A stretch of DNA of 64,000 nt from an uncultured Candidatus Bathyarchaeia archaeon (GTDB lineage: Archaea > Thermoproteota > Bathyarchaeia > Bathyarchaeales > DTEX01), in assembly GCA_964508155.1 (NCBI GenBank), contig CAZDRE010000001.1, forward strand, positions 197,174 to 261,173. The letters run 5' to 3'. The notes below the pieces were generated by a model, which saw nothing but the letters and a program-made list of their open reading frames with translations, ran no database searches and was not told the DNA's origin. The translations under genes and the position numbers were made by a program. This document shows positions 47,097-61,244 of the stretch, piece after piece. The first letter of the stretch is position 1; every line of letters begins with the position of its first letter.

Positions 47097-49277
47097 CTAT
47101 GCTATTAAAGGAGTTGGCTTCTGAGCCTTTCTAGCCTGCTTCATGAAGTTCCTATACCACTTGTCCATATCTGGCGTTATACTCGGCCCGATCTTCTCGA
47201 GTGCCTCCTCGAAATCTGCGAGCGTAACGGTCTTTGAGTTTATGTCCCTTCTCAGCGCTATTAATGCTGCTTCACGACAGACAGACTCTATATCGGCTCC
47301 AGAATATCCCTTAGTTAGGCCTGCGAGCTTCCTTAGATCGACATCCTCATCCAAGGGCATGTTCTTCGTGTGTATCTTGAAGATCTGATATCTGGCTTCC
47401 TCATCGGGCTCTGAAACATAGATCATCCTATCGATCCTGCCCGGCCTGAGGATCGCTGGATCCAATATGTCAGGCCTATTTGTAGCCGCCAATATCACAA
47501 CCTCCTGTAGGGTCTCTATTCCGTCTATTTCGGTTAGGAGCTGACTGATAACCCTCTCGGTCACCCCGCTATCCGCGTATCCTGCTCCTCTCCTCGGAAC
47601 CAACGCGTCGATCTCGTCGAAGAAGATTATCGCTGGGGCAGACATCCTAGCCTTTCTGAAGACCTCCCTGATGGCCCTCTCGGACTCTCCAACCCACTTT
47701 GAGAAGACCTCTGGACCCTTAATTGATATGAAGTTTGCCTCGCTCTCAGTTGCGACTGCCCTTGCAAGAAGAGTCTTACCACAGCCTGGAGGGCCGAAGA
47801 GTAAAACTCCCTTAGGAGGCTTTATTCCCATCCTCTTAAAGACCTCTGGATGCTTAAGAGGCCACTCAACGCATTCCCTAAGCTCCTGCTTAACCTCCTC
47901 TAGATCTCCAATATCACTCCAGTGGACTGTGGGAACCTCAACTGCAACCTCCCTCATTGCCGTGGGAGTTATCTCCCTATATGCATTCAGGAAGTCCTCC
48001 ATCTTGACCTCCATTTTCTCCAAGACGCTGGGTGGGATCCTCTCCTGTTCAAGATCGATCTCGGGCAGATATCTTCTCAGGGCCTTCATGGCCGTTTCGC
48101 GGCATAGAGCGGCCAAGTCGGCCCCTGTATATCCATGGGTTATCTCGGCTAGCTTCTTTAAGTCAACGTCCTTCGCCAGTGGCATTCCCCTCGTATGGAT
48201 CTGCAGGATCTCATATCGACCCTGCTTATCCGGAATTCCAATCTCGATCTCACGGTCGAATCTTCCAGGCCTTCTAAGGGCAGGGTCAAGGGCGTTCGGT
48301 CTGTTAGTGGCTCCTATAACGATCACATTTCCCCTACTCGTCAATCCGTCAAGCAACGCTAAGAGCTGAGCTACAACTCTCCTCTCAACCTCTCCTGTTA
48401 CCTCCTCGCGTTTAGGCGCTATCGCATCCAACTCGTCGATGAAGATTATCGCCGGGGCATTCTTCTCAGCCTGCTGGAAGATCTCACGTAGCCTAGCTTC
48501 AGACTCGCCGTAAAATTTGCTCATTATCTCAGGCCCATTTATCGAGAAGAAGTTCGCATCTGACTCGTTAGCGACTGCCCTTGCAAGAAGAGTCTTACCA
48601 CAGCCTGGAGGGCCGTGTAGGAGAACGCCCTTAGGCGGGTCTATCCCAAGCCTCTGGAAGATCTCGGGATGCCTCATTGGGAGCTCTACCATCTCTCTGA
48701 GTCTCTGTATCTCCTCCTTCAAGCCGCCTATATCCTCATAGGTCGTTCTTGGAACGCCCCTCGCCTCAGGAGCAGGCTCAGAGAGTATCTGAAGCTTCGT
48801 ATCGTATGTTAATCTGACTACGCCCCGAGGCCTAGTCTTCATCACCGTAAACTGAACTGGATGCCCAAGCATCATGACTAGGGTTGTATCTCCCTCAACG
48901 AACGTCCTCTCCATTAGCCTATTCTTAACGAAGTTCGTGAAGTCCTCATCTACATTTAGACGCATATCTATTGGAGCCAATACTATGCTTATCGCATCCC
49001 TAACCTCAGCCCGACGAACAGTTACATACTCATTTATTGAGACGCCAGCATTCTTACGTGTGAAGCCGTCAATCCTAATTATTCCCTTACCCTGATCCTC
49101 CGAGTATGCTGGCCACGCAATCGCAGATGTCCTCTTCTTCCCAATTATCTCAATTACATCCCCAGCTGAGACTTGAAGTCTCTCCATAGTCTGCTGATCT
49201 ATCCTCGCTATTCCTCTGGCTACATCCCTTTGTTTTGCGTCACCTACTCTAAGCTGAACCTCAGTCAATTGTATCAC
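47097..49277 (-). CDS. cdc48: CDC48/VCP-type AAA+ ATPase (two AAA domains)
   Basis: N-domain ([18 protein letters not shown]) and two Walker A sites [15 protein letters not shown]. Size is 726 aa. Confidence 0.95.
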
Positions 49278-57459: not shown

Positions 57460-57987
57460 TCAACTATTATTGCCTTCGTTCCGAAGCTTCCTCCTAGAAT
57501 CCTTCAGATGAACTATTTCCCCAAGAGTTACCTCCCTGCGCACCCTAGAAAGGTTTGATGGAACCTCAGGCACCGTGAAGGGGACGAGCAGTTTGATCCC
57601 GAGTGCATGCTCGATCTTCCTTGCAAGCCTCTCATCCGGCATTATCTTCTCCCCCTCAAGCTTCTTAATGACCGAGGCCTTCTCGTTGATCCGTCTGCCC
57701 AAGTCCTCCTGGCTTAAACCCAGACTTTGCCTCGCCCTTCTAATGATCGACCCGTAATTCTCGATCACGGTGATCTCCTCTGGAATCACATCCTTCCATT
57801 TCATGCCTGTTCTTCTAGGTCTGATTTGACGTGTAAGTTTAGGAGTAAACCTCATAGTCTCCTCTTCAGGCTTCCATTCGGCTGAGCCGAGCCTTGCACA
57901 CTTAGCGCAGACCGTGAGCTTCGCTCCCTCAATTATCACGTGGTATGGCTTGCCCTTTATATCGCAGCCGCAGACATCACATTGCAA
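57460..57987 (-). CDS. Archaeal multiprotein bridging factor 1 (MBF1)
   Basis: N-terminal zinc ribbon (CDVCG...CAKC) and a C-terminal cro/C1 HTH (LGLSQEDLGRRINEKASVIKKLE). Confidence 0.85.
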   Translation of the reverse strand: MQCDVCGCDIKGKPYHVIIEGAKLTVCAKCARLGSAEWKPEEETMRFTPKLTRQIRPRRTGMKWKDVIPEEITVIENYGSIIRRARQSLGLSQEDLGRRINEKASVIKKLEGEKIMPDERLARKIEHALGIKLLVPFTVPEVPSNLSRVRREVTLGEIVHLKDSRRKLRNEGNNS

Positions 57988-58112
57988 CTTTACAGCACCA
58001 TCAAAGTATAATATGGTTTCTCCATGAAATTAAGTGTGACTGTTTCCGTTTGAATGAAGCATATTTAAATGCTCAGGAGCATCAAGGCTTAAGAATCTAT
58101 GGTGACTTCAAA

Positions 58113-58625
58113 TTGTCCGTGGATCAGGCGAGAAAGAGGAGGCTCCTTGAGATCATCAGAAAGACTGCCGATTACCAGTTTGGATTGGGAGCTGGCGAGA
58201 TCCTTTTTCCGGAAGATGTGGATCTCGTGATCTCTAAGAAGACCGGGCGCGTCAGGCAGATACTGCTGAATGGAATTCTCATAGCGACATTAAATCCCAG
58301 ATCTGGACTTCTAAATTTAACGATTGAGGGCGCTGAGAGGCTATGCTCAAATGGAGAGGTTAGGGTAAGATGGGTTAAGGTTAGGGATGATGCTGCACAT
58401 TTCATCGAGGAGGGGAAAGATGTATTTGCGAGGCATGTAATCGACGCTGACAGGACTATCCGCCCATTCGAGGAGGTAGTCATTCTGAATTCGCACGGCG
58501 AGATCATAGCCGTTGGAAGAGCTCTGCTTTCGGGATCCGAGATGCTCGAGTTCAAGAGGGGAGTTGCCGTTAGGGTTCGTAGGGGAAGGATGGAGAAGAC
58601 TAAAAAAGGGAAAAGTAAAGAATAG
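58113..58625 (+). CDS. PUA-domain protein (tRNA/rRNA-modification associated)
   Basis: The C-terminal region VVILNSHGEIIAVGRALLSGSEM..KRGVAVRVRRG is a PUA pattern. The start is set at the TTG at 58113 (GTG at 58119 is also possible), downstream of the TATA-like atatttaaat at 58063-58072. Confidence 0.55.
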   Translation: MSVDQARKRRLLEIIRKTADYQFGLGAGEILFPEDVDLVISKKTGRVRQILLNGILIATLNPRSGLLNLTIEGAERLCSNGEVRVRWVKVRDDAAHFIEEGKDVFARHVIDADRTIRPFEEVVILNSHGEIIAVGRALLSGSEMLEFKRGVAVRVRRGRMEKTKKGKSKE

Positions 58626-59262: not shown

Positions 59263-59865
59263 CTATAGCAGTATTGGCTCTCCCTCAGGCTCCTTTTTCT
59301 TCTTCAAAGTAACCTCTAGAACTCCATTCTTGTATGATGCCTTAGCGCTCTTATTGTCAACCCTACATGGCAACTCAACCTTCTTGTAGTATTTCCTCTC
59401 CGGAGTATCAACTGAAATCGTCAATGTATCCTCTGTCCCATAGAGCTTAATATCCTTCTTCTCGACTCCCGGAAGCTCGGCGATAACCTTAACCTCATTA
59501 TTTGTCTCCATCACATCAACGAGCGGCTCCCTCTCCTCTCTGATATTTATCCTTGGACCCCCGAGTTTCATCTCAGGTTTTACGTTGCCGAACTCTCTGA
59601 TCTCAGGCTTCCCATCCGGGCCTATTGTAACGCTGTATCCGTAGATGAATGGGCCCCACTCACGTATCTTTGAGCCGTCAGGCAATGTCCTCTCACGTAT
59701 GAGATTCTTTGGTGTGATCCTTGCGAACTCCTCGAACTCCCTCCGCATCATCTCCTCCATCTCCCTGAATATTCTATCGATATCATCGAATATTCCCCCT
59801 CTAAAGAATGGGAATCTCCTCCTAAACCATCTGTCCCACTCATCCGTCAATTTACTCACCTCCAC
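59263..59865 (-). CDS. Small heat-shock protein (Hsp20/alpha-crystallin) with a long N-terminal arm
   Basis: The alpha-crystallin domain is VDVMETNNEVKVIAELPGVEKKDIKL...ASYKNGVLEVTLKK. Confidence 0.9.
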   Translation of the reverse strand: MEVSKLTDEWDRWFRRRFPFFRGGIFDDIDRIFREMEEMMRREFEEFARITPKNLIRERTLPDGSKIREWGPFIYGYSVTIGPDGKPEIREFGNVKPEMKLGGPRINIREEREPLVDVMETNNEVKVIAELPGVEKKDIKLYGTEDTLTISVDTPERKYYKKVELPCRVDNKSAKASYKNGVLEVTLKKKKEPEGEPILL

Positions 59866-60281
59866 TAAATTTCTTCAATCGCATCGAGTATTTGCCTCAT
59901 GGCGAGACCCATCAGCATGAAGGCTCTTCGTCCGAACTCTGAGCACCTATACTTTCCCCTCCCGATCTTCTCCAAGAAACCGCATTCACTAAGTCTCCCA
60001 AGATTCTCCCATACTATCTTCGGATTTAGGTTGAGGCTCTGCATCAGCTCGGCGAACCTCAGCGAGGAATCCTCCTTCATCATGAACCTCCACATCATCT
60101 TCATGCATGTCTCATTGGATAGGGCGTTGAAGATCCTCGAGAACTTCTGGAATTCCTCCTCGATCATGTTCATCTCGCTCTTCAGGTTCTCCCTTGACCA
60201 TTCGGCTACTGATATTGGAATCTCAAGGAGCACCTCCTCGTCCTTTATGAGCCTTATCTTTAATCCCATGGGTCTCGCCAC
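59865..60281 (-). CDS. Winged-HTH (ArsR-like) regulator co-transcribed with hsp20
   Basis: LRFAELMQSLNLNPKIVWENLGRLSECGFLEKIGRGKY. The last base of its stop codon is the first base of the hsp20 start codon (59865). It has a GTG start at 60281, with an ATG at 60269. Confidence 0.65.
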   Translation of the reverse strand: MARPMGLKIRLIKDEEVLLEIPISVAEWSRENLKSEMNMIEEEFQKFSRIFNALSNETCMKMMWRFMMKEDSSLRFAELMQSLNLNPKIVWENLGRLSECGFLEKIGRGKYRCSEFGRRAFMLMGLAMRQILDAIEEI

Positions 60282-60284
60282 ATT

Positions 60285-60330
60285 TTTATTACTGATTGGT
60301 AATATTTAAATATTACCAATCAGTAATAAA
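60285..60330. promoter_or_regulatory. Perfect 46-bp palindrome centred on a TATA-like core, immediately upstream of the wHTH-hsp20 operon
   Basis: tttattactgattggtaatattt | aaatattaccaatcagtaataaa was verified base by base. Each arm contains ATTAC-N6-GTAAT. The centre aatatttaaatatt lies 26 nt from the GTG at 60281. Confidence 0.6.
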
Positions 60331-60364
60331 TGATCCGAAAAAATAAGCCTGGAGGCGAATGCCC

Positions 60365-60859
60365 TTAACGGAATTCTATCTTTTCGGGCAGATTTTCATA
60401 TCTGGCCTTTCTATATCTCTCCAGTAGCCTGACGATCTTAAGGTTGTATTCAAGGAACTTCTGGAAGTTTAAATGTCCAGTTACGGGATCGATCACTCCA
60501 TGCCTGACGGCAACGACTCTTCTGTACGTATTCATCTCGCTCTTATCCGGTGGGATCAGGTATATGAAGATGCTTCTCTGCTTTGCGGGATCAGATTCCC
60601 CGCCGACCCGGGCTATGATTGTGCCATTATATGTTATTCTCGGGGTGAAAATGCCGCTTTCAACGCGGTATCCTTCCCTTATAGCCTCAGCTCGTAGAAT
60701 GCCATAGTCCACGTCATCCGCGAACTGGATTCTAATGATGTCTGAGCTGATCCTCTCAACCCGCTCCACGCCGGGTGGAAGCCTAGTTGAGGATCTCTTA
60801 TCGGAGAGAACTTCTGAGATCGCATCGAGCATCGTGTATCTTCTTCGGTCCATCATCAA
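60365..60859 (-). CDS. Hypothetical protein (164 aa), tightly coupled to the LigD-PE gene
   Basis: Intact ORF that starts 1 nt after the upstream stop. I recognise no motif in it. Confidence 0.5.
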   Translation of the reverse strand: MMMDRRRYTMLDAISEVLSDKRSSTRLPPGVERVERISSDIIRIQFADDVDYGILRAEAIREGYRVESGIFTPRITYNGTIIARVGGESDPAKQRSIFIYLIPPDKSEMNTYRRVVAVRHGVIDPVTGHLNFQKFLEYNLKIVRLLERYRKARYENLPEKIEFR

Positions 60860-60860
60860 T

Positions 60861-61244
60861 TCACTGTTTCGTCTTGAAGAAAAGCCAGTTCTTCTCCCCT
60901 TTAAACCTTATTAGGCAGTATTTACCTTTTAACCGTTTCCCATGAATCTCAATGACTATCTTTTCTGGGGTTCGCTCTATCAGCCTGTATGTTCCCTTAT
61001 CCCAGATCTCAACTACGCCCGCTCCATACTGCCCCTCCGGGATTACACCCTCAAAATTCGCATATTCTATCGGGTGATCCTCAACTTGAACTGCAAGTCT
61101 TCTTATACCGCTCTTTGTAGGGGGCTCCTTTGGGACGGCCCAGCTCTTCAAAACCCCATCCATCTCTAAGCGTAGATCCCAATGCAGATGGGATGCTTGA
61201 TGCCTCTGGATCACATAGATTCTCTCTTCATCCTCACTCATCAC
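60861..61244 (-). CDS. Stand-alone DNA ligase D 3'-phosphoesterase (PE) domain protein
   Basis: YVIQRHQASHLHWDLRLE, LKSWAVPK, VEDHPIEYANFEGVIPEGQYGAG and KGKY..IRF are PE-domain signature blocks. Confidence 0.85.
   Translation of the reverse strand: MMSEDEERIYVIQRHQASHLHWDLRLEMDGVLKSWAVPKEPPTKSGIRRLAVQVEDHPIEYANFEGVIPEGQYGAGVVEIWDKGTYRLIERTPEKIVIEIHGKRLKGKYCLIRFKGEKNWLFFKTKQ

Follow-up and report, generated by a model that had tools for sequence, protein, structure and literature searches.

The 64-kb stretch of DNA analyzed here (hereafter, the window) carries a regulator gene and a small heat-shock protein gene, hsp20, together with a 164-aa ORF, all of which are encoded on the minus strand. 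The regulator gene (59865–60269) codes for 134 aa when its start is taken from homologues, which begin at the MGLK position corresponding to ATG 60269, this codon being ATG or TTG in relatives. The initial annotation had started the gene at GTG 60281 and had counted 138 aa; this GTG is the mechanical start of the ORF, is not conserved in close relatives, and lies approximately at the expected transcription start. The next gene, hsp20 (59263–59850), encodes an archaeal small heat-shock protein (sHSP) of 195 aa with a probable TTG start at 59850. Its identity as Hsp20, claimed at the outset from the sequence, was confirmed by Pfam HSP20 (E = 4.8e-10) and by the NCBIfam archaeal Hsp20 model NF041800 (191.9 bits versus a cut-off of 140), and synteny agrees. 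A GGAGGTGA Shine-Dalgarno sequence for hsp20 (59856–59863, minus strand) is located in the 14-nt gap after the regulator stop codon, and in relatives a conserved TTG or ATG start follows the conserved GGAGGTGA. The overlap of the regulator stop codon with an hsp20 start codon at 59865, as first described, is therefore an ORF-calling artefact; the two genes remain tightly coupled across the 14-nt gap, and the operon organization stands.

The 164-aa ORF (60365–60859) had been taken for a gene converging on the regulator, but it lies on the same strand and is co-directional with it. It matched no Pfam or NCBIfam family. One base separates it from an ORF for a LigD 3'-phosphoesterase-domain protein (60861–61244; Pfam LigD_N, 2.6e-40), and both genes are conserved only in the close clade (L001–L005 and L036). 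The stop codon of the 164-aa gene is followed by a TTATTTTTT run (60338–60346, minus strand), a likely oligo-T terminator that precedes the palindrome described below. Elsewhere in the window, an ORF for an MBF1-like zinc-ribbon/HTH protein (57460–57987, minus strand) and an ORF on the plus strand (57945–58625) overlap head-to-head by 43 nt (57945–57987), so that the start of one or the other has probably been called wrongly.

Upstream of the regulator gene, positions 60285–60330 form a 46-bp perfect palindrome with 23-nt arms, to which no strand is assigned. It equals its own reverse complement, and complementarity ends outward at 60284/60331. The longest other perfect palindromes in the window measure 16, 16, and 14 bp; no second copy of the 23-nt arm is present there even when 3 mismatches are allowed, nor did any of 100 shuffles produce a match. 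The perfection of the palindrome and the improbability of a chance origin, with an expectation close to zero, are thus as the initial annotation had stated them. The ATTAC-N6-GTAAT repeat that it had noted within each arm is also there: in order of coordinates, the palindrome consists of TTT, ATTAC-TGATTG-GTAAT (60288–60303), ATTTAAAT (60304–60311), ATTAC-CAATCA-GTAAT (60312–60327), and AAA. From centre to centre, the 16-bp dyads are separated by 24 bp. The whole palindrome is identical in the closest relative (L001), the flanks of which differ.

Viewed in the direction of the operon, on the minus strand, these parts resemble a core promoter framed by two putative operators. In archaea, a BRE (RNWAAW) directly precedes the TATA box (TTTAWATR), and transcription starts at a pyrimidine-purine step approximately 27 bp beyond the centre of the TATA box (bioRxiv 10.64898/2026.06.17.732947). 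The window has TTTAAATA (60303–60310) as its TATA box, which agrees with TTTAWATR at 8/8 positions and lies within the palindromic core ATTTAAAT (60304–60311). Directly upstream of it stands dyad 1, the distal one (ATTAC-TGATTG-GTAAT on this strand; 60312–60327), whose proximal half-site GGTAAT sits at the BRE position and fits RNWAAW. Dyad 2, the proximal one (60288–60303, ATTAC-CAATCA-GTAAT), occupies the interval between the TATA box and the start site, which the published spacing rule predicts at a pyrimidine-purine step at 60279–60281, approximately 27 nt downstream of the TATA centre. The predicted 5' leader of the regulator mRNA would be only 10–12 nt long and includes a Shine-Dalgarno-like GGCGAG block (60274–60279), conserved as GGCGAG(G) before the start codon in relatives. 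As a separate observation, the symmetry at 60303–60327 places a BRE-like GGTAAT on each side of the TATA box, a layout that might in principle allow the core promoter to work bidirectionally; a plus-strand transcript would be antisense to the 164-aa gene, and there is no divergent gene.

The initial annotation had called the regulator a winged-helix protein, a call that holds only after profile and structure work. As a single sequence, the protein stays below the Pfam threshold (HTH_5, 16.6 bits versus a gathering cut-off of 22), while across the family HTH_5 matches 18 of 32 members at E < 0.01 and DUF7347 matches 26 of 32. The best match of a family profile in the PDB was an ArsR protein (6j0e, E = 8e-4), and Phr (2p4w) matched weakly (E = 0.015). 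The AlphaFold (AF2) model built from an 88-sequence alignment (pLDDT 92.9) comprises an N-terminal β-hairpin (residues 4–18), helices, a winged helix-turn-helix (wHTH; residues 53–109), and a long C-terminal helix (residues 111–133). Foldseek searches with this model returned CadC, CzrA, and SmtB at the top (target-normalised TM 0.68–0.79, E from 1.5e-4), with Phr in 47th place (2p4w_B, E = 3.1e-3, 22% identity). According to the model, the regulator is an ArsR/SmtB-fold winged-helix protein with an extra N-terminal β-hairpin. A first AF2 model from 32 sequences (pLDDT 65) had given a MarR-like Foldseek ranking and was superseded.

Among 1.84 billion proteins, the family comprises 156 representatives at 50% identity (E ≤ 1e-3), 72 of them at E ≤ 1e-10, and the source annotations of its members are only generic (ArsR family or wHTH). 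The recognition helix begins with a near-invariant N-P-K-I/L-V motif (N in 88/88 sequences, K in 86/88), which parallels the invariant half-site of the dyads. No metal-ligand set of Cys/His is conserved in the 88-member alignment, where the only frequent Cys is C109 (50/88); with Cys present in only 50 of the 88 members, the candidate role of the RCSE cysteine in redox or metal sensing is weakened. At residue 55 (codon 60105–60107), the window protein has Cys where 85 of the 88 sequences have Arg (SNETCMKMM versus SNETRLRMM); one further aligned sequence, presumably that of the 93%-identical relative P0001, also has Cys55, and the substitution coincides with the lineage of the perfect palindrome. 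Residues 17–19 (60213–60221), at the end of the N-terminal β-hairpin, form a near-invariant [I/V/L/M]-P-[L/I] motif with P in 82/88 members. The C-terminal IXI anchor of sHSPs docks into the β4/β8 groove of a neighbouring α-crystallin domain. The regulator motif resembles this anchor, and direct feedback by Hsp20 is a possibility.

For comparison, we extracted the upstream region of each regulator homologue from 76 genome loci (427 kb). The nearest of these, a Guaymas Basin Bathyarchaeota MAG (L001, QMXE01000003.1), is approximately 96% identical to the window at the protein level. The hosts are all Bathyarchaeia, except for one labelled Methanomethylicia and one labelled only Thermoproteota, and the host lineages belong to the kingdom Thermoproteati in the NCBI taxonomy. 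At least one TTAC-N6-GTAA dyad was found in the regulator promoter of every evaluable genome locus (74/74), and two or three in 72 of the 74; a 75th locus was left out as non-evaluable because its promoter lies beyond the contig end. The dyad occurs 182 times in the 427 kb, of which 165 occurrences lie within 150 nt upstream of a regulator start, 14 at promoters of N-terminally extended paralogues, and 3 elsewhere. The regulator–hsp20 pair itself is syntenic in approximately 70 of the 76 loci.

In nearly all homologue upstream regions, (A)TTAC-N6-GTAA(T) dyads surround a TTTATATA box, the TATA site reading TTTATATA or ATTTAAAT at the equivalent position. The main architecture is dyad 1, TATA box, and dyad 2, with a fixed spacing of 23–24 bp between the dyad centres across the TATA box. 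A third dyad often abuts dyad 2 as GTAATTAC, with a tandem period of 14 bp. Dyad 1 is missing from some family promoters and dyad 3 from some; in the window clade (L001–L005, L036, and L154), dyad 3 has been lost and the TATA box reads ATTTAAAT. In long-form paralogues the order is TATA box, dyad, N7, and dyad. Every architecture in the family has a dyad joined directly to the TATA box on its downstream side, the one position common to all, and the dyads keep a fixed position relative to the regulator gene family in more than 100 distinct loci. Members with only approximately 25% identity, on contigs of 56–60% GC, also keep GTAATTAC-joined dyads directly upstream and an sHSP-like (α-crystallin-like) gene directly downstream.

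Within the close clade, the half-sites, the outer TTT/AAA, and the TATA box ATTTAAAT are invariant in the alignment, while the N6 spacers and the outer flanks vary. The view that two dimer sites flank or occlude the TATA box of an autoregulated wHTH–hsp20 operon, put forward in the initial annotation, is thus strongly supported by phylogenetic footprinting: dyads and TATA box are invariant at 74/74 evaluable loci, spacers and flanks drift, and the gene pair is conserved. The comparison shows that the paired 16-bp dyads and the TATA box, rather than a long hairpin, are what is under selection. By the same comparison, the perfect 46-bp symmetry is a lineage-specific extra, which may stem from chance or from homogenisation between the arms.

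Two groups of relatives have features of their own. The distant members L197, L198, L202, and L204 (E = 1e-14 to 4e-6; contigs of 56–60% GC) have an operator that extends up to, or to within approximately 10 nt of, the start codon, and their mRNAs look leaderless or nearly so. The gene after the regulator in L198, L202, and L204 encodes an α-crystallin-like protein of 114–125 aa that falls just below the Pfam HSP20 threshold or has no match; in L197, the ORF at this place is cut at the contig end after 55 aa. L197, L198, and L202 adjoin tatC, and tatA and ubiA are also near in L197 and L198. The long-form paralogues (L048, L057, L064, and L066–L070; e.g., L064:2680-3400) have an N-terminal extension of approximately 95 aa, which contains conserved Cys residues and an FFDEVICL motif and has no Pfam match, and their promoters reuse the same dyads after a TTAAATA box. 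The two forms coexist on chromosome CP070730, where the short module (L026) and the long one (L064) each have a separate hsp20.

Within the window, a PWM built from family sites found only the two palindrome dyads at ≥8 bits. A DNA-first scan of public metagenome contigs for two dyads 0–10 nt apart gave at least 120 loci. Among the matches listed, 57 have family spacings (a gap of 0, 9, or 10); of these, 49 adjoin a regulator homologue, 3 lie at the end of a contig and are oriented so that the promoter would read out past it, and 5 belong to unrelated contigs. With gaps of 1–8 nt, nearly every match listed is an unrelated element from another organism. Paired dyads were not found at any second class of promoter among the metagenome matches listed. 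The initial annotation had pointed to cdc48 and thermosome promoters as further places to look. The cdc48 gene of the window (47097–49277) has a plain TTTATATA promoter and no dyad, and no thermosome gene was identified among eight large ORFs checked in the window. The element thus looks like a single-operon autoregulator rather than part of a heat-shock regulon, with single-dyad targets possible outside the window and the loci scanned.

The metagenome scan also brought up other families of paired dyads. An unrelated pair, ATTACCTTAGGGTAAC/TTACCTTAGGGTAAT with a 1-nt gap, occurs in at least approximately 20 contigs, several of them from the human gut, and no regulator homologue is nearby (L088, L093, L097, L113, L114, L129, L130, L135, L138, L156, L164, L167, L180, L186, L190, and L193). 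A pair ATTACCGTACAGTAATACATTACT-N4-GGTAAT with a 4-nt gap recurs in high-GC contigs (0.53–0.65), is likewise unrelated, and looks like a conserved operator of some bacterial regulator (L080, L082, L103, L108, L117, L123, L140, L143, L147, L152, L170, L173, L175, L179, and L188). Tandem repeats of 21 bp with the same dyad shape, ATTACTTACAAGTAATAGAGC, in low-GC contigs (L099:444-543, L189:470-569, and L155:3349-3385) look iteron-like.

Most probably, the palindrome is the promoter-operator of the regulator–hsp20 operon, occluded by the operon's own ArsR-fold autorepressor and released by stress. Each 16-bp dyad ATTAC-N6-GTAAT would bind one dimer of the winged-helix protein encoded by the operon (minus strand; regulator at 59865–60269 and hsp20 at 59263–59850). 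A dimer on dyad 1 would cover the BRE just upstream of the TATA box and compete with TFB, and one on dyad 2 would fill the interval from the TATA box to the start (around 60280) and block recruitment of RNA polymerase; occupancy may also hinder binding of TBP, and both genes would be repressed. With the regulator gene in first position, the operon would form a negative autoregulatory loop in which hsp20 is gated as well. Binding would be lost, and hsp20 released, under proteotoxic stress, for which heat is the most likely candidate.

The locus anatomy, the conservation of dyads, TATA box, and gene pair, the specificity of the dyads for the regulator promoter, and the protein fold are established here, and the adjacent protein is assigned to this DNA by co-occurrence. 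That this protein is the binder, and that it acts as a repressor, we infer. The modelled fold, shared with dimeric ArsR/SmtB repressors, argues for autorepression. Phr and HSR1 set precedents as archaeal wHTH repressors acting on palindromes at their own and hsp20 promoters (PMC10746257, PMC10653856, PMC2396416). Heat as the signal is suggested by the sHSP partner and by analogy with these two regulators; as a counterweight, many of the host lineages come from peat and other temperate sediments.

Dyad 1, being upstream of the TATA box, could act positively. Archaeal activators such as Ptr2 recruit TBP/TFB from upstream sites. If the dyads are real operators of an activator or a dual-mode regulator, a dimer on dyad 1 would recruit TBP/TFB; besides the position of dyad 1, the absence of dyad 1 from some promoters and of dyad 3 from others would fit such modular use of sites. 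The universal dyad, however, is the one joined directly to the TATA box on its 3' side, where it covers the TATA-to-start interval, the classic position of an archaeal repressor, and dyad 1 directly adjoins the TATA box, with an overlap into the BRE, instead of standing upstream of it. We therefore regard activation as unlikely.

The protein that binds the dyads could also be a transcription factor encoded elsewhere, in which case the adjacent wHTH protein would simply be carried along, under shared regulation, in an hsp20 stress operon. Dyads and regulator gene would co-occur in the same way if such a factor controlled the entire operon. Against this, the dyads track the regulator through short and long forms, through paralogues in the same genome, and through members of 25% identity in other neighbourhoods; the recognition helix of the family is as invariant as the half-site; and among the matches listed, dyad pairs with the family spacing are essentially absent away from the regulator. 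An unlinked factor is accordingly quite improbable.

The palindrome might instead work as a structure, either as an RNA hairpin that terminates the transcript of the 164-aa gene, an idea of the initial annotation, or as a DNA cruciform. A transcribed stem would have very high stability (−40.5 kcal/mol for the region, z-score −6.0), and perfect symmetry is confined to the window lineage. Oligo-T runs serve in archaeal termination, but the co-directional 164-aa gene has such a run of its own, at 60346–60338, before the palindrome is reached. When spacer 1 was compared with the reverse complement of spacer 2 in 67 pairs, matches centred on 2–3 of 6 positions and only the window species reached 6/6; the close-clade alignment contains uncompensated changes, so that the stem lacks compensatory conservation. 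The dyads are family-wide while the 164-aa gene occurs only in the close clade, and the predicted transcription start lies downstream of the stem. A scan for sigma-70 promoters and intrinsic terminators, of a design not meant for archaea, returned nothing relevant. The terminator idea thus falls away, and a structural role in general is very improbable.

A dispersed (MITE-like) repeat, a possibility named in the initial annotation and checked here, or a chance palindrome has next to no likelihood: although unrelated bacterial elements, with different spacings, also contain an ATTACY-N4-RGTAAT dyad, the palindrome is single-copy in the window, 179 of the 182 dyads lie at regulator-family promoters, the placement beside a single gene family holds in over 100 distinct loci against a chance expectation of about zero, and the arm search, the PWM scan, and the metagenome matches listed included no unrelated copies at family spacings, apart from 5 of the 57 matches.

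The promoter-operator reading, with an autorepressor encoded in the operon, bears on how these archaea respond to stress. As of 2023, dedicated heat-shock transcription factors were described only in some Euryarchaeota (Phr and HSR1), and none had been identified in Crenarchaeota (PMC10746257, PMC10653856). A limited literature search found no earlier description of a Bathyarchaeal hsp20 regulator. The operator–regulator–hsp20 module is thus a candidate stress switch in an archaeal lineage without a described one. It would provide a precise and testable regulator–operator pair for Bathyarchaeia, an abundant uncultured lineage of sediments, defined by a compact protein family, a 16-bp dyad, fixed spacings around the TATA box, and a conserved sHSP target. 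The pair is suited to in vitro work with synthetic DNA and recombinant protein. For organisms beyond the reach of cultivation, it would offer a regulatory part and a marker of stress. A bolder and unlikely proposal is that the family is the first dedicated stress (heat-shock) transcription factor family of Thermoproteati/TACK and senses stress through its own product, Hsp20. Hsp20 would then dock on the hairpin motif of the regulator and modulate its DNA binding, and unfolded clients would draw Hsp20 away and flip the switch. If true, this would be an sHSP-based titration loop, similar to HspR–DnaK or HrcA–GroEL.

Among known systems, Phr of Pyrococcus/Thermococcus (PDB 2P4W; NCBIfam NF053602), with which the initial annotation had compared the locus, is likewise an archaeal ArsR-type wHTH protein that acts negatively on a palindrome at its own promoter and that of hsp20 (PMC10746257). 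The comparison is sound as an analogy, in that the window regulator also has an ArsR-like winged-helix domain and, in silico, a palindromic operator overlapping the core promoter of its own gene and hsp20 operon. It does not extend to family membership, which is rejected: the NCBIfam Phr model gave 13.1 bits against a cut-off of 320 (E = 0.052, residues 44–119 only), and similarity is weak and confined to the wHTH domain (2p4w profile, E = 0.015; Foldseek, E = 3e-3). Phr has 202 aa and a larger C-terminal domain, whereas the window regulator has 134 aa, an N-terminal β-hairpin, and a single C-terminal helix. Also unlike Phr are the operator, TTAC-N6-GTAA in 2–3 copies flanking the TATA box, and the predicted co-transcription with hsp20. 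The Phr regulon includes an AAA+ ATPase (cdc48/VAT) (PMC10653856), whereas cdc48 has no operator in the window. Phr hosts are Euryarchaeota, and the window host belongs to Thermoproteati.

HSR1 of Archaeoglobus fulgidus (AF1298) likewise has its gene in an operon with hsp20, and its own promoter has a repressor-bound pentamer-spacer-pentamer palindrome downstream of the BRE/TATA (PMC2396416). The operators of both Phr and HSR1 lie downstream of BRE/TATA, and the mode proposed here, competition with TFB and a block of polymerase recruitment, is the one reported for these two regulators (PMC2396416). The HSR1 motif given there, CTAAC-N5-GTTAG, differs from the (A)TTAC-N6-GTAA(T) of the window, while the position downstream of the TATA box is shared; a dyad upstream of the TATA box, present in the window, is not described for HSR1. 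The HSR1 regulon includes an AAA+ ATPase (PMC10653856), whereas the window cdc48 gene is without a dyad.

The ArsR/SmtB metalloregulators CadC, CzrA, and SmtB, dimeric repressors of inverted-repeat operators, are the best structural matches, and the modelled regulator shares their helices, recognition helix, β-wing, and C-terminal dimerisation helix. It differs from them in falling below the HTH_5 cut-off, in having no conserved metal ligands, and in its extra N-terminal β-hairpin; its partner gene encodes a chaperone, whereas those of ArsR/SmtB proteins serve metal efflux or detoxification. In bacteria, HrcA–CIRCE, HspR–HAIR, and CtsR combine an inverted-repeat operator at chaperone promoters with a repressor encoded in the regulated operon. 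The circuit logic is the same as that in the window, but these repressors belong to unrelated protein families, act at sigma-factor promoters, and are tuned in activity by chaperone titration, a link that is only hypothetical in the window system. Overall, the logic is that of Phr and HSR1, and what is new is the protein family, the operator, the layout of its sites, and the phylogenetic setting.
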